From Escherichia phage vB_EcoS_FFH_1: a DNA stretch of 64,000 nt. The position numbers and the translations under genes were made by a program. Shown piece by piece: positions 975 through 61,400 of the stretch. The stretch lies in the sequence record KJ190157. One strand, 5' to 3'. Each line of letters opens with the position of its first letter. The stretch's first letter is position 1. Below the pieces are notes generated by a model. That model did not search any database and was not told the DNA's origin. It saw only the letters and a list, made by a program, of their open reading frames with translations.

Positions 975-1051
975 TGGCGCGACCGATGGGATTTGAACCC
1001 ACATTCTCTCCCGTGACAGGGGAGTACCATTACCAAGCCAGCCCCGGTCGC
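975..1051 (-). tRNA. tRNA-Asp (anticodon GTC), CCA encoded
   Basis: Manual fold: 7 bp acceptor GCGACCG/CGGTCGC, anticodon loop CTGTCAC, T-arm GTGGG-TTCAAAT-CCCAT. Confidence 0.8.
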
Positions 1052-1060
1052 ATAATTCAT

Positions 1061-1246
1061 TTACTCAGCTTTGAGTTTTTCAATAGCTGCATTAAGTTCT
1101 TTAAGAAACTCTTTTCGTACATTAAGACGATTGAGACTTACTAGTATATCGTGTTTAAGTTCTTCGATGTATTTCTTTTCAACTTCAATATTGTTGATAG
1201 TGCTATCACGATGAACTTCTAGCTGCGCAATTACATTCTTGGACAT
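1061..1246 (-). CDS. Hypothetical protein (61 aa)
   Basis: Short ORF between tRNA genes. Confidence 0.35.
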   Translation of the reverse strand: MSKNVIAQLEVHRDSTINNIEVEKKYIEELKHDILVSLNRLNVRKEFLKELNAAIEKLKAE

Positions 1247-1348
1247 GCTTGTTTCCTCAGTTATTAATGAAAATGGTATCTGTGGCTGAATTCGATGTCA
1301 GCAATGATAGCTGGTTGGCTACCGGTTTACTTAACTCTACACAGAATT

Positions 1349-1431
1349 TGGCGGGCCGTGTAGGATTCGAACCTACGTTGTCTTTCGACATGGATTAACA
1401 GTCCACCGCCAAACCGCTTGGCTAACGACCC
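1349..1431 (-). tRNA. tRNA-Asn (anticodon GTT) with an atypical 13 nt variable arm
   Basis: Acceptor GGGTCGT/ACGGCCC, anticodon stem-loop GTGGA-CTGTTAA-TCCAT, T-arm GTAGG-TTCGAAT-CCTAC, CCA encoded; extra hairpin TGTC-GAAA-GACA in the variable region. Confidence 0.55.
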
Positions 1432-1583
1432 TAAATTTATATTGCTGACTAGGATTTTCACCTAGACGGAGTTAGCACCGTAGCGTGTAGCGGCATACCT
1501 CTCCAAACCGTGCCTCATCTTTCAATTACGGAGACAGTGTTCCTACGCGTGCCTGAATTGATTCAACAATTCTTCCAGCAAAT

Positions 1584-1659
1584 TGGACGACCGCATGAGA
1601 TTTGAACTCACATAAAAAGGATTTGCAATCCTTCGCCTAAGCCCTTCAGCCAACGGTCG
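1584..1659 (-). tRNA. tRNA-Cys (anticodon GCA), CCA encoded
   Basis: Acceptor CGACCGT/GCGGTCG, anticodon arm AAGGA-TTGCAAA-TCCTT, T-arm GTGAG-TTCAAAT-CTCAT. Confidence 0.75.
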
Positions 1660-1707
1660 GTTTATCTTGTTCTGTCATGTTGCTTCTCCAGTTCAATTTA
1701 TGTAATT

Positions 1708-1736
1708 ATTATACAGAACTTTTGGAAACTAAGCAA
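1708..1736 (-). promoter_or_regulatory. Conserved early promoter, positioned to drive the downstream tRNA genes
   Basis: Minus strand reads TTGCTT-17 nt-TATAAT (plus aagcaa 1731-1736, attata 1708-1713). Confidence 0.55.
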
Positions 1737-2016
1737 CTACATTTTTTAAGAATTTGATGCCTTTCTTTTTCTTCTTATATTTCCACGTTAATGGATTCTG
1801 TCGATTATGAACGCTTGAGATCTTTGTCTCGTCAAAGTTCTTCAATATCATGTAATCACAGGATAATTGTTCTAGTAGAATGTGATCACCGTCAAAAGCG
1901 TATACATAAGGCTGTTGACTAACACGATAATGATAGACTTTGTTAATTCTACGTTTCAGCGACTTATCAGCGCAGTAAATAAAGAAGTTTTCAGGATGCA
2001 TCAGCAGCTCCTTCAA
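1729..2016 (-). CDS. Hypothetical protein (95 aa, lysine-rich C-terminus)
   Basis: ORF; no recognisable motif. Confidence 0.4.
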   Translation of the reverse strand: MKELLMHPENFFIYCADKSLKRRINKVYHYRVSQQPYVYAFDGDHILLEQLSCDYMILKNFDETKISSVHNRQNPLTWKYKKKKKGIKFLKNVVA

Positions 2017-2018
2017 TT

Positions 2019-2093
2019 TGGTGCACCCTGTTCGTATCGAACGAACCTCTCAAGCTCTTCAGGCAAGCGCTAATCCATCTCAGCTAAAGGTGC
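2019..2093 (-). tRNA. Probable tRNA-Phe (anticodon GAA); anticodon stem imperfect
   Basis: Acceptor GCACCTT/AGGGTGC, loop CTGAAGA, T-arm GTTCG-TTCGATA-CGAAC, CCA encoded; only 3 of 5 anticodon-stem pairs. Confidence 0.5.
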
Positions 2094-2099
2094 AAATTT

Positions 2100-2176
2100 T
2101 GGCAAACCTACTAGGACTCGAACCTAGACCGTACGGTTTTGGAGACCGACATGCTGTCCAGTAACACTCTAGGAAT
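2100..2176 (-). tRNA. Possible tRNA-Trp (anticodon CCA); acceptor stem has two mismatches
   Basis: T-arm CTAGG-TTCGAGT-CCTAG, anticodon loop CTCCAAA, CCA encoded; T-T mismatches in acceptor stem as read. Confidence 0.4.
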
Positions 2177-2184
2177 GCAGAAAT

Positions 2185-2261
2185 TGGCGTCCTGTGCGGG
2201 GATCGAACCCGCAAATCCTACCTTGAAAGGGTAGTGACTTTACCAGTTTGTCTAACAGGAC
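2185..2261 (-). tRNA. tRNA-Glu (anticodon TTC), CCA encoded
   Basis: Perfect acceptor GTCCTGT/ACAGGAC, anticodon arm CTACC-CTTTCAA-GGTAG, T-arm GCGGG-TTCGATC-CCCGC. Confidence 0.8.
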
Positions 2262-2268
2262 TTAAATT

Positions 2269-2359
2269 TGGTGTTGGATGATGGAGTCGAACCACCCGAG
2301 ACCCTTCCGAGTCGGCAGATTTACAGTCTGCTTCGCTACCTCTACGATACTAATCCAAC
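2269..2359 (-). tRNA. tRNA-Tyr (anticodon GTA), long variable arm, CCA encoded
   Basis: Perfect acceptor GTTGGAT/ATCCAAC, anticodon arm GCAGA-CTGTAAA-TCTGC, T-arm GGTGG-TTCGACT-CCATC; 91 nt. Confidence 0.75.
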
Positions 2360-2489
2360 ATATTTAGAAGTATTCAAAAATTCTCATTTAAACACTTTTA
2401 AATATGTTTTCAAATTAGGTAACTATTATACCAAGTTTTAAGGCACTGAGCAAGTCAAATTTTAAAGAACTTGCTCAGTGCTATATTAG

Positions 2490-2765
2490 TTAGTCGAACT
2501 TAGGAGTGACAGTTAAGGAGAACGGAAGTTCGAAAACTTCTTCACCCTCATTACTAACGGTAACTACACGACCTTTAAGTTCAGACATTAAAATATCAAT
2601 ATCAGCTTTTGCATCTGGAGCCATGCCAGCTTCAATACATTTAGCTTTAACCTCCGGTAGAAGATCTACGTTATAGAGATAGAGCCACTCAATCTCACCT
2701 TCCCAGTCTTCCCAGGATTTGCAGATTGCACTTTCAATACCAGTTGCTGCAACACGATTTTGCAT
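2490..2765 (-). CDS. Hypothetical protein (91 aa)
   Basis: ORF; a long inverted-repeat hairpin lies just downstream at 2446-2482. Confidence 0.45.
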   Translation of the reverse strand: MQNRVAATGIESAICKSWEDWEGEIEWLYLYNVDLLPEVKAKCIEAGMAPDAKADIDILMSELKGRVVTVSNEGEEVFELPFSLTVTPKFD

Positions 2766-2855
2766 TCGTTAACTCCTTCATCAATTTATACAACTATTAT
2801 ATCAGAAATTTAAAGCAAAAGGCAAGTACATTTTTAAAAATTCTGTTTGGAGGAG

Positions 2856-3062
2856 CTAAACTCCAGATTCTTCAGCTAAGTCTAGGCTAATAAGAGTTAT
2901 AGCCATAATTGCTGCACCGTGTTCTTTTTCTCCGGTGTTTTTAGCAGAGTCTATAATAGTCTTAATCTGTTCGTAATAGCCTTTTACTTCTTGTTCAATA
3001 CCTGCCTCGGCTATCATGCCTTTAGTCATGATTCGTTGCATAGTAATTTCACGGTTAGCCAT
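2856..3062 (-). CDS. Hypothetical protein (68 aa)
   Basis: ORF. Confidence 0.4.
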   Translation of the reverse strand: MANREITMQRIMTKGMIAEAGIEQEVKGYYEQIKTIIDSAKNTGEKEHGAAIMAITLISLDLAEESGV

Positions 3063-3222
3063 GATGTTTCTCCAGCTTCATTTTTAATAGTTTACAAATG
3101 AAATCAACGTCTTCATCTGTACCTAGATCTCTATCTTCAAGAGTTGCCTTGAAGTTTTTAGTCAATTCCATGAGGATAACTTCTCTAGAACGACGTGTTG
3201 GCGGAGGTGGATGTCTATACAT
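3055..3222 (-). CDS. Hypothetical small protein (55 aa, MYRHPPPPTRR...), below the ORF-track cutoff
   Basis: Hand translation; ATG at 3222-3220 preceded by AAGGAAATAAG; its stop overlaps the start of the next gene. Confidence 0.3.
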   Translation of the reverse strand: MYRHPPPPTRRSREVILMELTKNFKATLEDRDLGTDEDVDFICKLLKMKLEKHHG

Positions 3223-3237
3223 CTTATTTCCTTAGTT

Positions 3238-3314
3238 TGGTAGGGGTGGTGGGATTCGAACCCACAAAACCTGAATTTTAAGTCCAGTACCTATGCCAAT
3301 TCGATTACACCCCC
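3238..3314 (-). tRNA. tRNA with anticodon TAA (Leu by anticodon) but a short class-I variable loop
   Basis: Acceptor GGGGGTG/CACCCCT, anticodon arm CTGGA-CTTAAAA-TTCAG, T-arm GTGGG-TTCGAAT-CCCAC, CCA encoded. Confidence 0.6.
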
Positions 3315-3321
3315 GTGTAGT

Positions 3322-3510
3322 TTAGTCAATTACTTTTGAGGCTTCAAGGTAGTCGATATAGTGTATGTTTTCTACCGTAATCATATAATCTGCCACTTTA
3401 TCCATAGCTTGGGCTTCAGAGGTAGCTCTGGCTAACCTATATCCTTTTTTATATTCATCCGGGTATTCTCTATCTTGGATAAACACAACATAAACTATAT
3501 ATAGATCCAT
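3322..3510 (-). CDS. Hypothetical protein (62 aa)
   Basis: ORF. Confidence 0.4.
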   Translation of the reverse strand: MDLYIVYVVFIQDREYPDEYKKGYRLARATSEAQAMDKVADYMITVENIHYIDYLEASKVID

Positions 3511-3529
3511 TTGTGACCTCTATTTAATT

Positions 3530-3607
3530 TGGTGGCTCCCCGAGGATTCGAACCTACGTACCTTCCGGTTATGAGCCGGGTGCTCATACCATATGAGCTT
3601 GAGAACC
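3530..3607 (-). tRNA. tRNA with anticodon CAT (Met, fMet or Ile2 type); weak T-stem
   Basis: Anticodon loop CTCATAA, D-arm GCTC...GAGC, acceptor GGTTCTC/GGGAGCC with G-U pairs, CCA encoded. Confidence 0.55.
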
Positions 3608-3613
3608 AGAATT

Positions 3614-3702
3614 TGGCGGAAGAAGCGGGAATCGAACCCACAAGGCTATATTTCAAACCGACAGATTAGCAATCTGCTGCAATACCGTTATGCTATTCTT
3701 CC
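3614..3702 (-). tRNA. tRNA-Ser (anticodon GCT), long variable arm, CCA encoded
   Basis: Perfect acceptor GGAAGAA/TTCTTCC, anticodon loop TTGCTAA, T-arm GTGGG-TTCGATT-CCCGC; 89 nt. Confidence 0.75.
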
Positions 3703-3723
3703 GAATTTATAAGATATATTATA

Positions 3724-4245
3724 TTAGAAATTTAGCTTCATAGCAAGAAAATTTTTCAAGTTTTCGGTAGACATCTCATCCACATCTACGGGAGAAACAA
3801 AGCCGTTTAATTTTCTAGCAAATTTTTCACCCGCAGGATCATTGTCCCCAACAGCTACCAATTTAAAAGGTAGTAATTTCAGTTGCTTTAATAACGCTTT
3901 TCCTGGAGAAGAACCCAACATTGCTAGGGCTGGATAACCAGCATTATGTAACGCAACTGCCTTAAATACAGATTCAGCAATCAATACTACTTTTTCATCT
4001 CCATTGAGAGTTTCTAGTCCCCATACACACTGGGTAGTAGAATAAGTAAAGTATTTAGCTTCAAAGGGGCACTTACCATGACCTTTTGGAGCAGAAGGAT
4101 TATAAGTTTGATAGCCCCTCAACATCCCGGAGAAGTCATACAACGGGACTGTTAGCCATCCTTCCGGACTTAACCAGCAATGATATTTATCTGTATCAAA
4201 TCCTCTAGATAAGAGGTGCTGTGTTAGCTCATCAACATTCATATT
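3724..4245 (-). CDS. Toprim-domain protein (DnaG-type fold), about 173 aa
   Basis: Conserved glutamate in LIAESVF and the acidic motif VGDNDPAGE; start taken at the internal ATG (4245) with RBS GAAAGAGGAA, because the longer ORF would overlap the promoter at 4273-4301. Confidence 0.55.
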   Translation of the reverse strand, partial: NMNVDELTQHLLSRGFDTDKYHCWLSPEGWLTVPLYDFSGMLRGYQTYNPSAPKGHGKCPFEAKYFTYSTTQCVWGLETLNGDEKVVLIAESVFKAVALHNAGYPALAMLGSSPGKALLKQLKLLPFKLVAVGDNDPAGEKFARKLNGFVSPVDVDEMSTENLKNFLAMKLNF

Positions 4246-4272
4246 TGGTTCCTCTTTCAAATTTATAGATAT

Positions 4273-4301
4273 ATTATACAGAGAATTTAGCATTCAAGCA
4301 A
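4273..4301 (-). promoter_or_regulatory. Conserved early promoter (TTGCTT-17-TATAAT)
   Basis: Plus attata 4273-4278 and aagcaa 4296-4301. Confidence 0.6.
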
Positions 4302-4417
4302 TCAAATTTTTTAACTTTTTAGAGGAAAATCATAGGGCACTTAAGGATAGCAGATAAGTGGTGAGGACCAAAATTTGTGACCCCACTAAAAATCCTGGGG
4401 CAATTTTTAAAGACCCC

Positions 4418-4446
4418 TTGACATTTTCGCTGGGGTAGTGTAAAGT
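4418..4446 (+). promoter_or_regulatory. Sigma70-type promoter with consensus -35 TTGACA (spacer 17, -10 TAAAGT)
   Basis: ttgacattttcgc at 4418-4430; the same 13-mer recurs at 33016; drives the antisense plus-strand cassette. Confidence 0.45.
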
Positions 4447-4509
4447 ATATGTTATGGATGAGTGATCAAATAGACACACATTTTCTATATACTAGGAGGT
4501 GTCAAAAAA

Positions 4510-5492
4510 TGACAGAAGAAGTAACTAAGAGTCCTGAGACCGTCGCTAGCGTTGCAGCAGAATTGCACCGTCACGAGGAATCAGATAAGAAAAAGTGGGA
4601 GAAGGTCAGAGCCTACGAAGAAAAACATCGTGAACACGATGATAAAGAAGATGATGATGAACATTGTCATAAATATGGAAAACATAAAATGCAAGAACCA
4701 GTAAACGTATTCACTAGTGGCTTCCCTGGCCTACTGGGTGGTTATCCAGCAAACGCAAGTGCTTTCGGTGGTGAAGGTATGGGACTATTCGGAGCTATCC
4801 TAATCGGTGCTCTATTAACAGGCGGATTCGGTGGTTTCGGTGGATTCGGCGGACGTGGTGTAGTTGGTGAAGGTACCGCAGTTGATGCAGTACTTCAGAA
4901 CCAAGATACCGCTAGTATTCTAGCAGCTATTAACACTACTCGTACAGAAGCTAACCAGGGTACTGGAGCTGTTTTAAGCGCAGTTAACAATGGTTTTAGC
5001 CAGACATCCCAAAACCAGAGCCGTGATACTCAGTCTGTACTGACTACGATCTATGGTACAGGTGCTAATCTGTCTAATCAGATCTGTCAGGAAACTCGCA
5101 ACGTTATTCAGGGTCAGTTCGATCTTTCTCGCCAGATTGATCAATCTTTCGCAGCTAATCAGATAGCTCGTGCACAAGATAAGTTTGATTCTGCACAGAT
5201 CGCTTTCCAGCAGACTTTACAAACTAATAACCAGTTTGCCGCTGTTCAGGCTCAGATGTGTGCTAATCAGAACTCTCTGGAACGTCAGATCGCTGAATGT
5301 TGCTGTGAACTTCAGACTGCGATCGCTGGTGTAACTACTGCGCGTATCCAGGATGAGTTAGATGCATGTCGTCTACGTGAAGCAATCGCTGCGGGTAACG
5401 GTGCTAACGGTCAGGTAATTAATCAAATCGCTGTAAGTCTTGGTGCTATAACTCAGACTCTGGCTGGTCTGCAGGCTAAACTGCCGGCTTAA
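4510..5492 (+). CDS. Low-complexity membrane protein: charged N-terminus, one hydrophobic helix followed by GGFGGFGGFGG, then an N/Q/T/S/A-rich C-terminal region
   Basis: Start taken at the ATG after GGAGG (4510); codon usage biased to GGT/GCT/CGT/CTG unlike neighbouring AT-rich genes; opposite strand to flanking genes. Confidence 0.5.
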
Positions 5493-5513
5493 TATTAAGG
5501 GGAGGAGCCCATT

Positions 5514-5930
5514 ATGAGTAAATATGGTTTTGTAAATAACGGACTTAATCAAAGTATGGGCTCCCAGCAGCCCCTGCCTGGTCTGGATAACCCCTACTTA
5601 CAACAATTGCAACAGCGTTTAGCAGAAGCGCAACAGATGCAGCAACAACTCCAGCAAAACCCTGGAAGTGTGAGTCCTATGCAAATGATGCAGCAAATGA
5701 GCGGGCAGTCGCAAATGCCTCAACAAATGCAGCAACAGGTGCCTCAGCAGCAAGTTCAGCAACAAACCCAACAACCGCAGGTTTCTGCGGAAGGACAGGC
5801 AGTACTAGCCCTTTTCGAAGACTTCGCAAAGACAGAGGATGGGAAACAGCTTGTATCACTTATGGGTAAGTTTAATAGCTTCTGCCAAAGCCAAGTTGCA
5901 AAAGCTCAAAATGGTGGTAATAACTCCTAA
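5514..5930 (+). CDS. Glutamine-rich low-complexity protein (138 aa)
   Basis: RBS GGGGAGGAG upstream; roughly 40 percent Q in the central region. Confidence 0.5.
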   Translation: MSKYGFVNNGLNQSMGSQQPLPGLDNPYLQQLQQRLAEAQQMQQQLQQNPGSVSPMQMMQQMSGQSQMPQQMQQQVPQQQVQQQTQQPQVSAEGQAVLALFEDFAKTEDGKQLVSLMGKFNSFCQSQVAKAQNGGNNS

Positions 5931-5939
5931 GGAGAAATT

Positions 5940-6134
5940 ATGTGTTGCAGAAAACCTGTTTCGTGCTGCCCAATGCCTGTAGCACGTTGTTGCTCTCCAG
6001 CAATGTTTACACAAATACCGGCGTTCAATCCCTTTGCCTTTAAGCCTACTCTTATCCTGCCCCCTAGAGTAGATTTTCAGTCAAGATTGGCCTCCCGTAT
6101 GGGTGGTTGCTGTACACCGAGAGTGTGGTTCTGA
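5940..6134 (+). CDS. Small cysteine-rich protein (64 aa; CC pairs)
   Basis: RBS AAGGAGAAA 5 nt upstream of ATG; followed by an intrinsic terminator. Confidence 0.4.
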   Translation: MCCRKPVSCCPMPVARCCSPAMFTQIPAFNPFAFKPTLILPPRVDFQSRLASRMGGCCTPRVWF

Positions 6135-6150
6135 AGAACCAAACAATAAA

Positions 6151-6186
6151 GCCCCTAGTCGAAAGACTTAGGGGCTTTTCTGTATT
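6151..6186 (+). terminator. Intrinsic terminator ending the plus-strand cassette
   Basis: GC hairpin gcccctag...ctaggggc followed by a T-run. Confidence 0.6.
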
Positions 6187-6190
6187 TAAG

Positions 6191-6230
6191 ATAAAAGAAA
6201 AGCCCTGCGCTCTCCAGGGAACGCAGGGCT
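6191..6230 (-). terminator. Intrinsic terminator downstream of the SPFH gene
   Basis: Hairpin agccctgcg...cgcagggct with an A-run on plus (U-run on the minus transcript). Confidence 0.5.
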
Positions 6231-6254
6231 TACTTCAGATGTTACATGCGGATA

Positions 6255-7202
6255 TTATTTATTACGCATATCCATGATCATTTGACCATCGTAGCCAGTA
6301 CCTACCACAGTCTGTGGTACACCACCTTGATATTTCTGAGCACGAATCATTTCGACTTCCAGTTGTTTCCAACGAATCATCTCAGGAGTAATGGTACGTT
6401 GCAGTGCGGCGTTAGCTTCAGCTTCTTTCTTAGCTGCGTACAGTTTAGCATCTGCGTCACGTTCATTAGCGATAGCTTGGTTGTTGCGAGCTTCACGATC
6501 TGCTTCTGCTTGTTTAACTTTTTGCTGTGCTTCCTGTTCAACACGAGCTAATTCAGCTTTAGCAGCATTAACCTGTTCTTCACGAACTTTGGTATTCTGT
6601 ACCTGTTCCATGATTACCGGTGGCAAAGTAATATCCTGAAGGAATACCTGCTTAACTGTGTAACCATATGGGCGTGCATACTCTTCAACTTCCTGTTGAA
6701 TTGCAGTTTGCAATTGAGCCTGAATTTTAGCATCAAACAAATCTTGTGCTTTAGGTACAGACTTACCAAACTCACGAATAGTAGACAGTAATTTTTCAGT
6801 TACATATTTGTCTAACGCTTGATCCTGAGTACCTGCGTTAATACGGTTAATTGGTGCCTTAGAACCATCAAACTGCAACATAACAGTCAGGTCAACAGTG
6901 GATTTAAACTTATCCTGGCTAGGAACCTGAAGTTTATCTAATTTTACAGCAATATCTTTTGTACTAAAAGTGTCGAAAGATGCAAATGGGTTTACAAGAT
7001 GGAAACCTGGTAATACTGGGTTAGGATCTACTTTACCCAGAAATGTTTGGGTTTTAACCGTACCATCAGAAACAATAGTATATGAATTAAAGGCTAGAAT
7101 CAAGCCTGCTAAACCAACTACAGCACCAATACCCCAACGTTTAATAGTACGAATTACTTTCTGCTCAGAAGTCAGTTCTTTCATATTTTTAGTATTAAAC
7201 AT
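6255..7202 (-). CDS. SPFH/band-7 (prohibitin/HflK-HflC-like) membrane protein
   Basis: N-terminal transmembrane helix, SPFH-like core, long coiled-coil A/E/Q/K-rich C-terminus; RBS AAGGAA. Confidence 0.65.
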   Translation of the reverse strand: MFNTKNMKELTSEQKVIRTIKRWGIGAVVGLAGLILAFNSYTIVSDGTVKTQTFLGKVDPNPVLPGFHLVNPFASFDTFSTKDIAVKLDKLQVPSQDKFKSTVDLTVMLQFDGSKAPINRINAGTQDQALDKYVTEKLLSTIREFGKSVPKAQDLFDAKIQAQLQTAIQQEVEEYARPYGYTVKQVFLQDITLPPVIMEQVQNTKVREEQVNAAKAELARVEQEAQQKVKQAEADREARNNQAIANERDADAKLYAAKKEAEANAALQRTITPEMIRWKQLEVEMIRAQKYQGGVPQTVVGTGYDGQMIMDMRNK

Positions 7203-7236
7203 ATATTTCCTTTGTTTTAGTTACAGTTAATAAAAT

Positions 7237-7311
7237 TGGCCGAGGTGACAGGATTCGAACCTGCATAAAGGAATTTAGAAGACTCCTGCCTCTCCCTTAG
7301 ACTACACCCCG
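7237..7311 (-). tRNA. tRNA-Arg (anticodon TCT), CCA encoded
   Basis: Acceptor CGGGGTG/CACCTCG, anticodon arm GGAGT-CTTCTAA-ATTCC, T-arm GCAGG-TTCGAAT-CCTGT. Confidence 0.7.
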
Positions 7312-25233: not shown

Positions 25234-25662
25234 ATGTTCAATAATGTATTCTCTAAAGAAGCTAACCCAATTTTGGTTAACTTTTGGCGTACTCTCCCAG
25301 CTAGCCTGTATAATGAGGCTATTAACTCTTTGAAAATATGGTGTGAGAATAACGAAATCTCCTTTGCTTTTAAAGATGATATTGATGAGGCTCCCTGTAT
25401 TGTTTTAATTGTGCAGGTAGAGGAGGGTCTTGAAGAGATTGTGGGCTGGAAAGAGTTAGACGAAATGGGCTTAGTTTTTGCGTTAAATTATAAACTGTTT
25501 ATGCCTGCTAAGCATCGCCTTGTTGTTAACTATAAAACTAGTGAATCTCCTGGTTTTCAGGTTAATGAACGTTATGGTTGGTCTTACTCACCGGAAGAAG
25601 TAAATGAGGGGATTCAGAAACTTCGACGTTTCGGGTATATGATCCCGGGTTTAACTGCTTAA
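25234..25662 (+). CDS. Hypothetical protein, paralog A of a tandem pair
   Basis: Shares WKELDEMGLVFALNYKLFMP and C-terminal YMIPGLT with the next ORF. Confidence 0.5.
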   Translation: MFNNVFSKEANPILVNFWRTLPASLYNEAINSLKIWCENNEISFAFKDDIDEAPCIVLIVQVEEGLEEIVGWKELDEMGLVFALNYKLFMPAKHRLVVNYKTSESPGFQVNERYGWSYSPEEVNEGIQKLRRFGYMIPGLTA

Positions 25663-25671
25663 GGAGGCAGG

Positions 25672-26064
25672 ATGGAACAAGTATATTGGCGTCAGATTGA
25701 CCCTAGTTTGGTGAAACGTGCGGAGAAGCTGCTACAACGTTGGTTGGGGGTAAGGCAAGCCTCCTTCTCTTTTCCGGAGCAGCAAACGGATGATCCATGC
25801 ATTGGCGTTTTCCTGTCTGGATATGCCGGGGAATGGGAGATGGATTGGAATGAATTGTCCGCTATGGGTTTAATTGTTGCCCTAAATTTCTCTTTGTTCC
25901 ATCCACGTGGTTTGGCCATATGTCGTGTGCCTGATGACGGTTGTTCGCCCCATCTTTTACAGGTGGAAGATGATATTTGGGAGTACACTCCAGATATTCT
26001 CAAAGAAGCTAAAGAACAATTAAACCGTGTTGGGATTTATGTTCCAGGCCTAAATGATGAATGA
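25672..26064 (+). CDS. Hypothetical protein, paralog B of a tandem pair
   Basis: WNELSAMGLIVALNFSLFHP and YVPGLN match the previous ORF; RBS AAGGAGG. Confidence 0.5.
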   Translation: MEQVYWRQIDPSLVKRAEKLLQRWLGVRQASFSFPEQQTDDPCIGVFLSGYAGEWEMDWNELSAMGLIVALNFSLFHPRGLAICRVPDDGCSPHLLQVEDDIWEYTPDILKEAKEQLNRVGIYVPGLNDE

Positions 26065-26088
26065 TTTTTACTAGCTGAACTCTGATTA

Positions 26089-26113
26089 CCGAGTCAAAAT
26101 GACTCGGTTTTAT
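26089..26113 (+). terminator. Intrinsic terminator
   Basis: Hairpin ccgagtc-aaaat-gactcgg followed by ttttat. Confidence 0.55.
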
Positions 26114-26155
26114 CCGTACTCAAGACCAATGATAGCACCATCCGGAAAATTTTAC

Positions 26156-26184
26156 TTGCAGGATGCCCAAAATCTTGATATAAT
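26156..26184 (+). promoter_or_regulatory. Early-type promoter (TTGCAG-17-TATAAT) with no ORF for about 490 nt downstream
   Basis: ttgcag 26156-26161 and tataat 26179-26184 followed by the conserved ATATTTATATTGAGAG box. Confidence 0.5.
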
Positions 26185-26676
26185 ATTTATATTGAGAGAC
26201 ATTAGTAAAAATTGATTTTGCTAATTTTTCTTGTTTACAATCCGCGATACGGAACAGTTAGGCTGCCCCATTAAGGGTTGTTTTAACTATTACTAGTGTT
26301 TATATTGCATTAGTTAATCTTCAATTAAGTGATCTGTGTACCCTGAATTCGGAAAGGTAAATCCAAACCGTGCATATTTAGCTCGTTATATAGGCAGAGC
26401 TTTATATGGGGGTGCGAACGAAAAGAGCAGCGAATGGCGGCACGTACAGTAGTCACCTACCAATAGGATAGTGAGGACAAATAGAATCGGCTTAGCGGCC
26501 AATGACCTAGGTTCTATTCTGTATATGAGCGAAGAGAGCACAGCACTGAGATATGATAACTTATTCATATTGTTTGATGATAATTGATGTTTACGTAAAT
26601 AGTAGTAATAGTTGTTCTATTCTTTCTGAATAGTCCTAAAGAAAAGATTTCTATTAATCAACACAGGAGTATTGTT

Positions 26677-29466
26677 GTGTTTTCTATCCTCCAAGGTCAC
26701 GCCGGTTTTTCTCGTGATTTAGCAACAGGTATTTGGCGAGAAATCAAAGCGGAAGATTATACCTTTGCCAAACGATTCTCGAAAGAGCATCCAGAAGGTA
26801 AACCAGCTTCTATGCCCTTCAAATTTGATGTAATAGAAGAGCACGACCCACAAAGCCTTGCCGAAATGTTACCACTTATGAGACGTTTAACGTCTGACCC
26901 TCATATCGTTGCGGTACGAGGTCGATGTCTTGCACCTAAAAATAATGTGCGACGTAAGAAAGGTAACTTTAATGTATCCAACCCTAGCAATATTATTGCT
27001 ATGGACGTGGATGGTATCCTAGATACCGGTGGGTATGACAAGTTTAATCTTGTAGGTATGGCTCGCCACATTATTAAGATGTTGAATAGTATTAGTGAGG
27101 ATATGTTTCCTCTTGATGCAGGGTTTATTGCTCATGCATCGTCTTCGGCTGGCCTAAAACCAGGTATCCGAATGCACTTAATGCTAGAATCTAACGTCAA
27201 GGTAACTCAAGGTCAGTTAAAGTTCTTATTTACGTCTATCAATGATAGTAGTAAGCAAAAATTCGGTTTTGATATTGCCGACTTAGCTTATTACTCATCT
27301 GTCCAGCTTCACTATTTTGCCGACCCTTTATTTAGCGATGGTATTGTTGATCCGTTTAAAGCGGAGAGTAAGCCACGTCTGGTATATGTTAAAGGTTCGA
27401 AGGTAAATTTGCCCAATAATCTGGTTGACTATGAAACAACTAGAGGGGAATTTAAGGAAGAGTTTTATTCTTTACTTGATCAAATTAAAGGCAAAAAGAT
27501 TGCTTCTGATAAAGTAGAAGAAACCATCAGCGAATTGGAAGAAGCCGAGGATGGGGTGTACTTGCGTATTATCCCCAAACTCTACCATAGAGCATTAGAG
27601 GATGGTGTTGATTTCGCATGGCTAGAACGCGAGATTAAACCCGCTTTATCTGAATATATTGCAACTAAAGATAACAGTCGTAATATTCAAGATTACTTTA
27701 ATAACGGTCGTAAGCAGGCTCTCAAAGCGTTTGTTAATAATTCTAAACGTGAGATCCCATTAAATCTGAAGGGTGTTCCACTCAAGAAATTAGAAGTGGA
27801 TTCTCCACCAGAAGTTCCGTACCTGAAGATTAACATTGTGCCTCCAAAAGGCCATATAACATTTGTTAAGGCAAGTCTTGGTACTGGTAAGACTACGGCA
27901 GTAACTAAATGGCTGGACGCAGGTGTTCTTCCTGGCAACTTTTTAGCAGTTACAAATACTAGAGCACTGGTATCTTCAAACGCTAAGAAATTTAGCGCAG
28001 GACAATATGATAAGTCTGTAGATATGCTCAACTTTAAACGTGGAGCTATTGATCGTATGTCTACAACTATCCACTCTTTGCATAAGTTCAAAAGTTTTAT
28101 TGGTCAAATAGATACCATTTTTATTGATGAATGTGATGCTGTAATGAATGATCTATTATTCGCACCTGTTGTTAAGCAACGTCGCGAATGTATTCAAGTT
28201 CTACGTGACATCCTCATGACAGCTAAAACTGTAATTCTATCAGATGGTGATATTAGTGCCGAAACTATTGAAGCATATGGTTCTCTAATTGATTTTGATA
28301 AACCAGTAGCATTTTATAATCATCACCGTAAGATGCTGTCAAAAGCTCATGCTTATGAGTTCCCGGATGAATCCAGTATTTGGGTTGCACTTCAGACCTC
28401 TCTAGAGATGGGTGAGAAATCTATCCTAGTATCTGATTGTGGGCCGGATGAACTGAATGAGAAGGGCATGGCATTGCGTCGTAATACGGGTGCGCTAGTT
28501 AAGGAAATCCACTCAAACTCCACTTCAGATGTGGATATTAGACGTATTCTGGATTATACGACTAATGAGTTAATTGATCAACAAATTGACTGCTTATTAT
28601 GTAGTCCATCCGTAACGAGTGGCGTTGATTTCAACTATTTTGATAACGTATTTGTTATTACTAGAACTAGTAATCAAGCGCCAAACATGCGTTTCCAAGC
28701 AATTAGGCGCGACCGTGGTGCTCAGAATATCTATTATTTTATTGATAAATCTACGAGTGGATTCTCCGCAGGTTCTGAACAATATAATATTGATGAGGGT
28801 TGGCTGGAGTTAGCACAGCAATTATACGCACGTCGCAGAGAGCTAGAATCTAGGAACTATACTAGTACTTTACGTTATTACTTGCTTGATCAGGGTGCAA
28901 CTATTGATATTTTCAGTGAAAGTTGGGGAACTATTGAAGGTGCTGGTAAAGAGTACACAGAAGAGCGAATTAAAGCTATTCTACATTCAACTCCTGATTA
29001 TTGTGCTCCACGTCATGCGGATGCGTATGAAGCTAAACTACTTCTTGTCCGCTATTATCATCTTGAGTCTATTAAAGATGTAACAGTTGAGCATGTTGAA
29101 CAATATATCAAAGATAAACCGAATGATCGAGCTGCATTCTTCCATAAGATGCACGAGATGTTCTGGGAAGATATTAAGAAGTGTTCAAATGTGACCATTA
29201 AACCATTCATAGAGGCTCTGAAAGGTAAGAAGAAAGACTTCTTCCTTAAAACAGGTCAGAGTGCTAACCCAAAATATGCTAGAATGTATCTTGGTATGAT
29301 GGGTATTGGTAAGGATATGAACACTGAAAATATTGTAGACTGGTACAGAACCTATTGTAAAATCGAGTGTATGCCAATCCCATATAAGTTTATGACTGAT
29401 GAGGAGAAACATATGCATGATGAAGCAATGGCAGAGCTAGGTGCTAGAAATGACAGTGAAGAATAA
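26677..29466 (+). CDS. Large SF2-type helicase / replication-origin-binding-type protein (929 aa)
   Basis: Walker A KASLGTGKTT and DExD-like IFIDECD; GTG start after AGGAG; follows a 600 bp noncoding region. Confidence 0.55.
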   Translation: MFSILQGHAGFSRDLATGIWREIKAEDYTFAKRFSKEHPEGKPASMPFKFDVIEEHDPQSLAEMLPLMRRLTSDPHIVAVRGRCLAPKNNVRRKKGNFNVSNPSNIIAMDVDGILDTGGYDKFNLVGMARHIIKMLNSISEDMFPLDAGFIAHASSSAGLKPGIRMHLMLESNVKVTQGQLKFLFTSINDSSKQKFGFDIADLAYYSSVQLHYFADPLFSDGIVDPFKAESKPRLVYVKGSKVNLPNNLVDYETTRGEFKEEFYSLLDQIKGKKIASDKVEETISELEEAEDGVYLRIIPKLYHRALEDGVDFAWLEREIKPALSEYIATKDNSRNIQDYFNNGRKQALKAFVNNSKREIPLNLKGVPLKKLEVDSPPEVPYLKINIVPPKGHITFVKASLGTGKTTAVTKWLDAGVLPGNFLAVTNTRALVSSNAKKFSAGQYDKSVDMLNFKRGAIDRMSTTIHSLHKFKSFIGQIDTIFIDECDAVMNDLLFAPVVKQRRECIQVLRDILMTAKTVILSDGDISAETIEAYGSLIDFDKPVAFYNHHRKMLSKAHAYEFPDESSIWVALQTSLEMGEKSILVSDCGPDELNEKGMALRRNTGALVKEIHSNSTSDVDIRRILDYTTNELIDQQIDCLLCSPSVTSGVDFNYFDNVFVITRTSNQAPNMRFQAIRRDRGAQNIYYFIDKSTSGFSAGSEQYNIDEGWLELAQQLYARRRELESRNYTSTLRYYLLDQGATIDIFSESWGTIEGAGKEYTEERIKAILHSTPDYCAPRHADAYEAKLLLVRYYHLESIKDVTVEHVEQYIKDKPNDRAAFFHKMHEMFWEDIKKCSNVTIKPFIEALKGKKKDFFLKTGQSANPKYARMYLGMMGIGKDMNTENIVDWYRTYCKIECMPIPYKFMTDEEKHMHDEAMAELGARNDSEE

Positions 29467-58400: not shown

Positions 58401-61400
58401 TTAAGAATTTCCTAATGTTTTCAGACTAGCACCGTTCTCATTCAGAGCTAATTCTACTGCGTCTCTTAGAGCACCACTATTACTAGAAGCAAACTCTCTA
58501 AAACTTGCAGCATCCATAGCACTAATATTCAGGATGATAGGTCTTCCTGAAGTTGAGTTAGACGAGGTTTTTAGCTCATCATTAGGTGTAGCTTTCATAG
58601 GAACCATAGGGGTAACTACTTCTGTACCATGCTCACCCATTTGATAGCTAACCCCTGGATACATATTACCACCCTCAGCACGAGGAACGAAAGAGTTGGC
58701 ACTACCTATACCTTGATCGCCACGAATATAAGATAGTTCACCTGCATTAGCAGACATGGACACATCTATATTCTTCTGACGCTCTCCTAAGGTTAAGTAA
58801 CTAGTTGTATCCGCCCCAGAATCAGCAATACTTGACATACCAGATGCAGAAGATGCTTGTGCTAATGCCAATGCACCCGCTAAACCTGCCGCAACCATTA
58901 AAGGAATAGAGAACGGGTATGGTACAGCTGTTGCCGCTTGCATTACAGCTACTGCAGTTTGGATGATAATCTGCTTCTTAGCTGCGTCTTGTTGAATCTT
59001 CAGCTTTTCAGCTTCCAACTTCTTCAACTTAGCTTTAGATGCTTCTGATTTACCATCACGTTTCTGTTCTGCTGCGATAGCTGCATCAATAGCACTAACC
59101 TGTTGACTAGTACTATACTGAATCATAGAAGATACAGTTTGCATGCCAGAAGCAATCAAGGAGGTAGTATCTAGGGATCCCTGAGAGAACTGGATCATAG
59201 CGTTAGTTAAGTTACCCATACTTTGAGCCACAGCGGTTGCTTCAGAATTTAATTCAGATAGCTTAGAGATTGCCTGATCATAAGAAGCCATTCTATTTTG
59301 CATATCTGCAAAATCTTTGTCTTCCCCCGATAGTCCAGTTGTAGGAGTGTACACAGCACCCACAGAAGATCCTACCTGTTGCTGCATTTGGCCTTCTCTT
59401 TGCTTTCTAAGTTGCTCTAGAGCAGCAGCAGTTTTATAGATCTCATTACGATACTTGATCTCTTCTTCGGTATTGCCCTTAGATAGTTCTAGCTGTTCTT
59501 GCAAAACAGATAATCTTTCCGTAAGAATCTGAGCTTGGCCAGTAACATTTCTTTGTGTTTGGCTGACTTCTAGTGCATCCATGAGAGCTGATACATGTGA
59601 GGCAGTTGCCTGCTTCTCCGTTTCCCATAGTTCCCTACTTATTTGTGCTTGAGCACGTCTAGACTGTTCCGCCTCTTTCTGTTTGTCCGCTTGTTTTGTA
59701 TACCATTCGTACTTCTCTTTCTCTACAGTTAGTTCTAGTTTTAGCTGAGCTAATCTATATTGAGTAGTAGTCATAGTACGGTCATTCAGAAGAGCTATCT
59801 CACGATCTACACCAAGAATTTTATCTGTGTAATCCTTGACCTTCTTCTGAGCTTCCATACCCTGATTGGTAAGTTTAAGTTTCTCCAGCTGAATTTTTTC
59901 AATTTCTTTCTCAACAGCTTTATTCCCCTGGTTTGTTTGAAGAACACGGCGTAAAGCAGCTTCTTGCTCTTCTAACTGTTGCAACTCTAAACGTCTACCA
60001 GCTTCCTGAGCCTTTTCCTTATCCTTAGTTTGAGTGTATACATCAGCTATCTTCTGTTGAACTGCTAACTGATTTTTAGTTTCATTACCAGTTAGTTTAA
60101 CATACTCAGATAGAGCCTGAGATGCAGTTTTCATTTCAGACAGGGTGTTATAACCCAGGTTAAGGTTTTTAACATACTCATCGGCACTCTTACCGGTACC
60201 TAAGGATAGAGATTCTATATTTTTTATAGCATCAGCTAAAGTGGCACTAGTTTTAGCCGCAGTATCTGTATTCTGAGCAACGTTCTGTATATCATTAGCT
60301 AAGTCACTAGCAGTTTTCTTAGTTTGATTATACGCTTTCTGTTGTTCAGTTAGTCCTTTTAATACTGTGGAGTTAAAGTCATATACAGCACCAGGATCAG
60401 TAGTATCCCTCTGTAGATTAATTTGCTTCTGAAACTCTGGACTAGCCTTTGCAGCAGCGGCCCCAGCAGCTTGATACGCTGATTTCCAAGCATTGAGATT
60501 CTCTGTAGAATCCTCTACTTCCTTACCAAGTCTAGTTACTTGTAGACCCATAGCTGCAGTTTCTGCTACAAATTGCTTATTGGCCTCCGAAGCACCTGCT
60601 GCTGCAAGACCAACAGGAATACCTTCACCAACTTGACGTATAGCTAGTTTTGTATAGAAATCTGCTTGTTCCATTCGTTTATCGAACTCAGATTTTAGCT
60701 TATTACGCTTATCAAGAGATTCCTTATACATATCTAGAGCTTTATTATACCCTTCTTCAGAAGCGGCTAAACTTAAAGCAACAGCACCAACGTTGGTAGG
60801 ATCTATCTGTCTATTAGTTTTTTCTTGAGCTCTAGCTGCTTCAGCAGATACAGAAGCCTGAGAAGTATAAAATACTGTGTTGATAGCATCAATTACGGGC
60901 CCTAAGTATTTAGCAGCAGCCTGCTGAATCTTTCTCAGTGCGGCATCAGCATTAGCGGCAAATTGCTCCCACGGAGTAGCACGTAAAACTTCATCTAAGT
61001 AGCCAAAACGTTTAGTAGACTCTGCTATAACAGCATTAGCATACGCCTGCTGTTTCTGGAAAGTAGTAAGGCTGTTAATATTATATGTTATACCTGTGTT
61101 TGCAGCATTTAACTGCTTAACGTAATCAGCATAAGCATCATTAAGACGAATAGTAACACCAAGTTCATCCAGAAGTTCGATTTCTTGTTTAGATACACCC
61201 TTAATTACACGGTTAAGTGCATCAGTCATATCAACGCCAAGAACAGCAGCAGCACGACGAGCTACTAAACCAAATTTATTAAGTTGTTCGGCGTCAAATC
61301 CATAAGCGGACGCTGAGGATGCTTGCCTCATAGCTTCTTCAAAAGAGATTGCATAGCCAGCTGCCTCTTGTAGTGATCTAGCAAGGGACTGAACAGGAGT

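Follow-up and report, generated by a model that had tools for sequence, protein, structure and literature searches.

Between a DUF7415 gene that ends at position 26064 and the gene of the D2 helicase, the genome of Escherichia phage vB_EcoS_FFH_1 (sequence record KJ190157) contains a gap of 612 base pairs (bp), positions 26065-26676, and the question raised by this locus is what the gap encodes. Positions refer to the window, the stretch of 64,000 nucleotides (nt) that was analyzed, read 5' to 3' on one strand (+). The gap is longer than any other part of the window that lacks an open reading frame (ORF) of at least 61 amino acids (aa) on either strand. A sequence-only reading of the window had described it, with the right coordinates, as ORF-free, with an 'orphan' early promoter and a locally GC-richer segment, and had offered a replication origin, a long structured leader or a noncoding RNA (ncRNA) as explanations. 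Our analysis indicates that the region almost certainly encodes a conserved structured RNA, which would form the 5' leader of the D2 messenger RNA (mRNA).

The phage belongs to the relatives of T5. A query of 750 bp around the locus matched 439 phage records, the best of which are all T5-like (Demerecviridae, Markadamsvirinae); over this query, the window shares 96.8% identity with T5 itself. In three GenBank records of T5, the counterpart stretch (58,928-59,544 of 121,750 bp) lies between T5.107 and D2, a 929-aa 'replication origin binding protein', and the only annotations inside it are a rho-independent terminator and the 'putative early promoter T5P32'. The GC content is 0.45-0.50 across 26350-26549, compared with 0.24-0.36 in the flanks, so the GC-richer segment of the earlier description is real. 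The core is purine-rich on the + strand; the RNA-like strand of the central domain has a GC skew of about +0.25 and an AT skew of +0.2 to +0.28. AT-rich tracts border this domain, and the interval 26550-26649 contains 24% GC.

A conserved RNA fold encoded by the gap

The leader of the window folds with a predicted minimum free energy (MFE) of -126.8 kcal/mol (z = -3.09), and none of 100 dinucleotide shuffles was as stable. The - strand of the same stretch reaches -97.8 kcal/mol (z = -1.52), and the + strand is the more stable of the two by 13-52 kcal/mol in all nine lineages compared.

Covariation provides the strongest evidence that this fold is maintained. Close relatives show hardly any variation in the ~100 nt that follow the promoter and in the ~70 nt that lead up to D2, and their central ~300 nt occur in two strongly diverged versions that share short islands such as GGCTTAGCGGCC. 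Type A is found in the window, T5 and Epseptimavirus, and type B in many Salmonella and E. coli phages. Two alignments were analyzed, both built from the nucleotide sequences with no structural input. The first (group A) comprises 17 type A sequences that are 88-99% identical, which places the alignment itself beyond doubt. It contains 153 predicted pairs, and 99.8% of the pair cells form standard pairs. Twelve pairs are changed on both sides, compared with 4.9±1.2 in column shuffles (a value reached in none of 500), and this number falls to 0-1 when the partners are slid by 1-3 columns. The second, diverged alignment combines eight type B sequences with the Pectobacterium phages DU_PP_V and My1 and with L109, the only new lineage that a metagenome scan for D2 relatives provided. 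Here, 57 of the 107 pairs are changed on both sides, as opposed to 16.4±3.0 in shuffles (again none of 500) and 11-21 with slid partners, and 93.9% of the cells are paired versus 36-46% after sliding. G·U combinations exceed A·C by 396 to 2 in group A and by 190 to 17 in the diverged set. The fold therefore exists only on the + strand, which is the strand transcribed from T5P32.

The leader, with ~17 predicted helices, is well supported as a new family of large structured RNAs whose general kind is known, either a structured mRNA leader or a large ncRNA. The covariation in both alignments, the excess of G·U over A·C and the lack of a conserved ORF strongly support two of the three explanations offered by the sequence-only reading, the structured leader and the ncRNA; the third, an origin, received no positive support, as conserved iterons are missing and the GC skew shows no turn at 26 kb.

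The Rfam 15 covariance models matched the leader neither in the window (E ≤ 10) nor in 11 related loci (E ≤ 5). Resemblances noted by eye to the CR-V of RNase P (ACAGAAC..CGGCU), to the cobalamin riboswitch (GGUGAGAUUCC, GCCAC) and to elements of group I introns were dropped, since Rfam returned no match on the leader. Full-text literature searches found no description of the leader RNA and no mapping of transcription start sites or transcript ends in T5.

Architecture of the leader

The features of the locus are listed in Table 1. Independent MFE folds of the different lineages share an architecture that consists of a 5' hairpin, the ACGGAACAGUUAGGCUG stem-loop, a long duplex, the UUAGCG hairpin, a hairpin with a loop of ~8-11 nt, a small hairpin and an open ribosome-binding region.

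Table 1. Features of the locus between the DUF7415 genes and D2 (window positions).
Feature	Positions	Strand	Basis and remarks
Rho-independent terminator of the upstream DUF7415 gene block	26088-26113	+	Stem ACCGAGTCA / TGACTCGGT, followed by a T-run
Early sigma-70 promoter T5P32	26146-26184	+	Sequence; T5 GenBank annotation; conserved in relatives
Structured leader RNA of D2 mRNA, ~486 nt	26191-26676	+	MFE and covariation; 5' end inferred from the -10 element
H1, 5'-terminal hairpin	26194-26232	+	Outer stem GAGAGA/UUUCUU, 10-bp inner stem
H2, stem-loop carrying conserved GAUACGGAACAGUUAGGCUGCCCCAU (26246-26271) and the ACGGAACAGUUAGGCUG motif	26237-26281	+	RNAalifold helix
Long-range closing duplex, 5' strand	26284-26324	+	Pairs with 26574-26614; DNA inverted repeats I1 and I2
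Central multi-helix domain, GC-richer and purine-rich	26325-26573	+	Two divergent 'alleles', A and B, in close relatives
HU hairpin, conserved GGCUUAGCGGCC (26489-26500) at the apical loop	26480-26518	+	Outer stem AAUAGAA/UUCUAUU, asymmetric internal loop, 3-bp stem
Hairpin AUAUGAU-AACUUAUU-CAUAUUG, ~8-nt loop	26550-26571	+	Counterpart elsewhere has the conserved loop UUGCCACCCC
Long-range closing duplex, 3' strand	26574-26614	+	Pairs with 26284-26324
Small hairpin CUAUUC-UUUCU-GAAUAG, 3' of the closing duplex	26617-26633	+	Invariant in types A and B
A/U-rich, largely unpaired spacer, Shine-Dalgarno sequence AGGAG (26665-26669) and GTG start codon (26677-26679)	26634-26679	+	AGGAG/start arrangement conserved
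D2 helicase gene, 929 aa	26677-29466	+	GenBank 'replication origin binding protein'; T5 annotation; GTG start

H1 is invariant within T5, Epseptimavirus and the type B phages, and a hairpin of the same shape and other sequence occupies the start of the transcript in L109, DU_PP_V, My1, the Klebsiella type, Providencia phage PR1 and Proteus phage Stubb. In H2, an A-U pair is replaced by G-C in L109 (pair 98-106 of the alignment).

The closing duplex is A/U-rich, measures ~35-40 bp and encloses the multi-helix domain of ~250 nt. It is predicted as segments of 12, 7 and 10 bp and more, stacked coaxially with small interruptions, which provides at least 20 bp, or about two turns, of near-continuous helix, the length required by RNase III. 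One of its pairs is A-U in the window, G·U in T5 and G-C in type B, and a long duplex with an unrelated sequence takes its place in at least seven lineages, including type B, L109, DU_PP_V, My1, PR1 and Stubb.

Changes on both sides of a pair also occur in helices 5-15 of the central domain. Within this domain, the UUAGCGG motif of the HU hairpin is present in every lineage examined, at leader positions 299-353. Two HU pairs are changed on both sides in group A, and the inner stem displays G-C to A-U and G-C to C-G replacements. The outer stem was compared in a hand-registered table because the sequence-only alignment recovered the inner stem alone. At its five inner positions, 49 of the 50 cells from ten representatives are paired and four of the five positions show all four Watson-Crick types, counts that serve as supporting evidence only, given that the table was fitted to the structure. 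A covariance model of HU derived from four group A sequences was too sequence-specific, and other lineages aligned to it only locally. The hairpin at 26550-26571 has two pairs changed on both sides in group A, and its equivalent in the diverged set, helix 16, has four of five. The small hairpin (helix 17) is retained, with changes, in L109 and DU_PP_V.

A terminator-like hairpin is also found on the - strand, at 26503-26486. It corresponds to the UUAGCG hairpin in reverse complement, with a T-rich run behind it, and neither a - strand promoter nor the gene context supports a function for it.

Transcription and translation signals

The terminator stem upstream of the leader is a perfect 9-bp inverted repeat (26088-26096 / 26100-26108) that is kept in relatives with a variable loop, and the T5 records annotate a terminator at the counterpart of 26088-26113. 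T5P32 follows. It comprises a -35 element TTGCAG (26156-26161), a 17-bp spacer and an extended -10 element TGnTATAAT (TG at 26176-26177, TATAAT at 26179-26184), and is preceded by the A/T-rich tract AAAATTTTAC upstream of the -35 element. The site thus has the features of T5 early (sigma-70) promoters, namely TATAAT at a distance of 17±1 bp from TTGnnn and an A/T-rich upstream tract. A generic sigma-70 scan missed it because its -35 element agrees with TTGACA at only three of six positions. The pattern TTGC(A/T)N-17-TATAAT is kept in T5-like phages of Klebsiella, Providencia and Pectobacterium, the D2 proteins of which are only 55-75% identical. From the position of the -10 element, transcription is predicted to start at about 26191.

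No terminator-like site was found by a scan of the + strand between 26191 and 26677. Transcripts from T5P32 should therefore run into D2, which is the basis for regarding the RNA as the leader of D2 mRNA. The sequence-only reading had located the promoter correctly (26156-26184), and the term 'orphan' does not apply to it, as it serves the D2 transcription unit. A 5-bp hairpin covering the Shine-Dalgarno sequence and the start codon of D2 is present only where the sequence is invariant.

Several variations were observed around the promoter. At the predicted transcription start (26185-26195), the window has one ATTGA unit fewer than T5 and most relatives (ATTGAATTGAGAGA vs ATTGAGAGA). In the Salmonella phages 8sent1748 and Kenya-K41 (L013 116-568 and L007 ~640-1190), an HNH endonuclease gene is inserted between the T5.107 homologue and the leader. 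In these phages T5P32 is swapped for a different consensus promoter at the same distance to the leader, and the start of the transcript, ...ATGAGAGACATTAG, is kept. A second promoter-like site at 26212-26241 was not treated as functional, as it lies inside H1 and is split in some phages by a 97-nt insertion.

Distribution and variants

The order terminator, promoter, leader and D2 is kept in distant phages in which the remaining sequence can no longer be aligned (D2 identity 55-75%). These include the Klebsiella type, the Pectobacterium phages My1 and DU_PP_V, the Providencia phages PR1 and PSTCR5, Proteus phage Stubb and the metagenome lineage. The leader is 471-522 nt long in most lineages, 612-616 nt in two Providencia phages and 765 nt in Stubb. 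A degenerate pattern of the 5' motif matched 32 viral contigs. Of these, 31 are T5-like genomes with a single copy each, always at this locus, and the remaining match is a chance occurrence in unrelated DNA without D2. The leader of L026 (1010-1503) is a recombinant that joins a type A central domain to a type B 3' tail (AAAACTTATTTCATTTCC), which implies that modules are exchanged at the conserved blocks.

Long, promoter-started and ORF-poor leaders also precede the D2 homologues of Vibrio phages (Ermolyevavirinae and relatives). Their alignment gave a covariation term of +4.79, which is no net covariation support, and many broken pairs; neither homology nor a fold is claimed for them. In one of these leaders, that of Vibrio phage PG07 (L083 ~1030-1210), a segment of ~75 nt is directly duplicated, with copy starts ~101 nt apart (GACTATCACTTTGTAGCCTCAATCCTCGGATTGTGTGAGTCAGTTAACTTCTGTCG...).

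Two further variants affect the 5' part of the leader. The 97-nt insertion lies immediately after H1 (at a point corresponding to ~26232) in DT571/2, Gostya9 and NR01 (L006, L010 and L012) and is absent from the window. It is flanked on both sides by TTTTTCTT, resembling a target-site duplication, contains a hairpin of its own (ATTTACGG...CCGTAAAT), and occurs at this site only among the loci compared. In Salmonella phage oselot (L004 756-786), ATTTTGCTA, which corresponds to the 3' strand of H1 (26214-26224), is present in four tandem copies that the record annotates as a repeat_region.

Function of the leader

With regard to function, we lean towards a leader that acts in cis and controls the processing, stability or translation of the D2 mRNA; an effect on the expression of D2 itself is inferred. 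Host RNA polymerase would initiate at T5P32, near 26191, and the nascent RNA would fold H1, then H2, and then the closing duplex around the ~250-nt domain, which would display the invariant UUAGCG loop. The small hairpin and the open A/U-rich ribosome-binding region would come before the GTG codon of D2. By analogy with hairpins that guard against 5'-end-dependent decay, the 5' hairpin may protect the D2 mRNA. RNase III, by a similar analogy, may cut the long duplex, split the D2 message off the folded domain and thereby set the stability and translation of this message; the duplex has the length that the E. coli enzyme cuts, so that processing there would separate the two. A phage or host factor could contact the conserved loops and so adjust D2 expression.

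Extended duplexes in the N-gene leader of phage lambda and in the early mRNA of T7 are cut by RNase III, which alters the stability and translation of the downstream gene. The T5 leader resembles them in being part of an early phage transcript, made by host RNA polymerase, with a long untranslated leader that contains an extended duplex. The lambda and T7 elements, however, are single hairpins of roughly 50-100 nt, whereas the T5 duplex, for which cleavage is a prediction, closes a ~250-nt multi-helix domain with invariant loops and bears no sequence or Rfam relation to them. In its architecture, though by no relationship to rRNA, the leader is also analogous to the processing stalks of rRNA precursors, in which flanking sequences form a long-range duplex around a folded domain. 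Such stalks are the classic entry point of RNase III, which frees the enclosed domain.

Several observations weigh against a role in cis. The z-scores of the eight other lineages range from -0.7 to -4.5, and several of them are modest (-0.7 to -1.9). A long leader is missing in some distant D2 homologues (34-48% identity), and D2 thus does not generally require one. Among the aligned leaders and repeats, no conserved alternative pairing was seen that would switch or sequester the ribosome-binding site. In this respect the leader, which like riboswitches and T-box leaders is a conserved folded domain in the 5' untranslated region directly upstream of a gene, appears to differ from them: it is much larger than most, no conserved terminator/anti-terminator or Shine-Dalgarno-sequestering pairing was found in it, and Rfam gave no match. 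Finally, ~490 nt and ~17 predicted helices exceed what protection or processing of an mRNA would need, which suggests an additional or different function. In our view, the size and the invariant loops speak for a domain that has a binding partner as well, or that acts alone after its excision.

The latter possibility corresponds to a stand-alone ncRNA, an explanation that we regard as considerably less probable than an action in cis. RNase III would excise a folded RNA of ~300 nt from the closing duplex, and this RNA would act in trans, with D2 being merely the next gene on the precursor. Its role might be that of a catalyst, of a ribonucleoprotein component, or of a decoy or sponge that targets a host factor or defence system. 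The number and size of the helices and the invariant UUAGCG, ACGGAAC and UUGCCACCCC motifs resemble autonomous large ncRNAs more than typical leaders, the 35-40-bp duplex brackets the domain exactly, and phages that are nearly identical elsewhere exchange the central domain as a module, as seen in types A and B and in the recombinant L026. With OLE, GOLLD, ROOL, HEARO and raiA, the leader shares a length of several hundred nt, conserved loops and a large number of covarying helices; GOLLD and ROOL, moreover, are often borne by phages or prophages. Unlike these RNAs, it is restricted to T5-like phages, always forms the 5' leader of one gene and matches no covariance model. No independent terminator was found for a separate RNA, the element is always fused to D2 and found nowhere else, it matches no known ncRNA class, and no gene for a partner protein is evident beside the leader.

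That the locus is a transcription-primed origin appears unlikely. In such a scheme, the transcript would fold like RNA II of ColE1, and a persistent RNA-DNA hybrid in or near the leader would become a primer or a loading site for D2. The more specific proposal that the folded transcript sets the start of T5 replication, as an RNA II-like primer or organiser acting through an R-loop and/or through recruitment of D2 via the invariant UUAGCG and ACGGAAC, and so defines the primary origin of T5-like phages, is equally doubtful, if not slightly more so. RNA II is ~550 nt long and needs correct folding, and the T4 origins oriF and oriG and the T7 origins contain promoters. Like these origins, the T5 locus has a promoter followed by several hundred nt of noncoding RNA beside replication functions: a strong promoter and then ~490 nt of structured noncoding RNA stand directly upstream of the gene of a putative initiator helicase. 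The T5 leader continues into a translated gene, unlike RNA II, and has neither an antisense regulator nor homology to it. The position of the locus, at about 48.4-48.9% of the T5 genome, would also suit an origin, as the primary T5 origin was reportedly placed near the centre of the genome by Bourguignon et al. in 1976. In addition, the purine-rich RNA-like strand of the central domain favours R-loops, and AT-rich tracts flank this domain.

Other data speak against an origin. The gap contains no conserved iterons or DnaA-box-like repeats and only 10-nt repeats in two copies, and the stem that contains one copy of the repeat GTTCTATTCT differs in sequence in type B. The cumulative GC skew, a weak test in phages, turns at ~20.7 kb and 47.6 kb together with gene orientation, and not at 26 kb. 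A recombitron preprint describes a strand bias which indicates that T5 is replicated predominantly from one end (PMC10055335). No mapped T5 origin was found in the accessible literature. The D2 homologues without a leader argue in the same direction, and selection acts throughout on RNA pairing and not on a DNA unwinding element. An origin is retained as a minority possibility because a primer similar to ColE1 RNA II would likewise be a conserved folded RNA beside replication genes. For T5 replication as a whole, PMC3632103 cites Bourguignon 1976 for a start at 'multiple origins'.

It is very improbable that the region works at the DNA level with no RNA function, whether as cruciform-forming or protein-binding inverted repeats or as the scar of a mobile element. 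The inverted repeats are detectable in the DNA, and the region is a hotspot of insertion (the HNH endonuclease gene, the 97-nt insert and the tandem expansion of a 9-mer). However, the group A ratio of G·U to A·C means that pairing works on one strand only, which the extrusion of duplex DNA does not require. Moreover, the covarying structure comprises ~17 nested helices and not one palindrome, and a promoter is retained directly upstream of the leader in all lineages.

Least credible is that the gap holds small protein-coding genes, even though several GenBank records annotate them and the longest ORFs of the window's gap reach 38 aa on the + strand (two such) and 60 aa on the - strand, given that substitutions keep base pairs and not codons. 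No ORF of at least 25 aa is conserved in position, frame or strand among the nine lineages, so the search for a conserved ORF in related phages, one of the findings that the sequence-only reading had named as refuting its proposal, came out negative. When the lineages are compared in translation, similarity shows up in all six frames simultaneously and is confined to blocks of conserved DNA. Coding sequences (CDSs) of 28-60 aa have been called within the leader in some records, such as those of vB_Si_CECAV_FGS009 and AKM_HA2021_32, and the record of oselot starts the D2 CDS ~96 nt upstream, within the leader. As the ORFs are not conserved and the similarity is not frame-specific, both the short CDSs and the extended oselot start are probably over-annotation.

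D2 and the genomic surroundings

Biochemical work has shown D2 to be an unusual bipolar superfamily 2 (SF2) helicase; it is a relative of herpesvirus UL9, and a role in initiating replication has been proposed for it (PMC3632103). Its sole Pfam match is Herpes_ori_bp at residues 389-533 (E = 1.3e-7), and it belongs to PHROG 3712. The N-terminal 385 aa (26677-27831) matched nothing in Pfam and PDB sequence searches. Throughout the Demerecviridae, this part contains the invariant residues D110-x-D112, S155, S157, G159, K161 and H167, in which we presume a resemblance to motifs I and II of primase-polymerases (AEP).

Directly upstream of the terminator are two tandem paralogous genes (25234-25662 and 25672-26064) with two DUF7415 repeats each. 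The window's other long ORF-free stretches lie alongside a cluster of 10 tRNA genes on the - strand (975-7311). Short records labelled 'Listeria phage LM 4-14-1' (H96) and 'LM 4-11-1' (H160), and others labelled Campylobacter, contain a T5-like leader and D2 at 85-86% identity; these records are probably mislabelled or contaminants.

Implications

For the annotation of T5-like genomes, the lesson is that short CDSs in this region and D2 starts extended upstream are probably errors. T5 is a classical model phage, and in the records and papers searched a promoter and a terminator are the only features assigned to this gap. To our knowledge, few large structured RNA families have been described, and their functions are mostly open. 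The leader would add to them a new family without an Rfam relative, in an experimentally easy system. Because the RNA stands directly before the putative initiator D2, in a phage for which the accessible literature contains no mapped origin, the UUAGCG loop, the closing duplex and the 5' hairpin offer concrete targets for mutations that address both the expression of D2 and the start of T5 replication.

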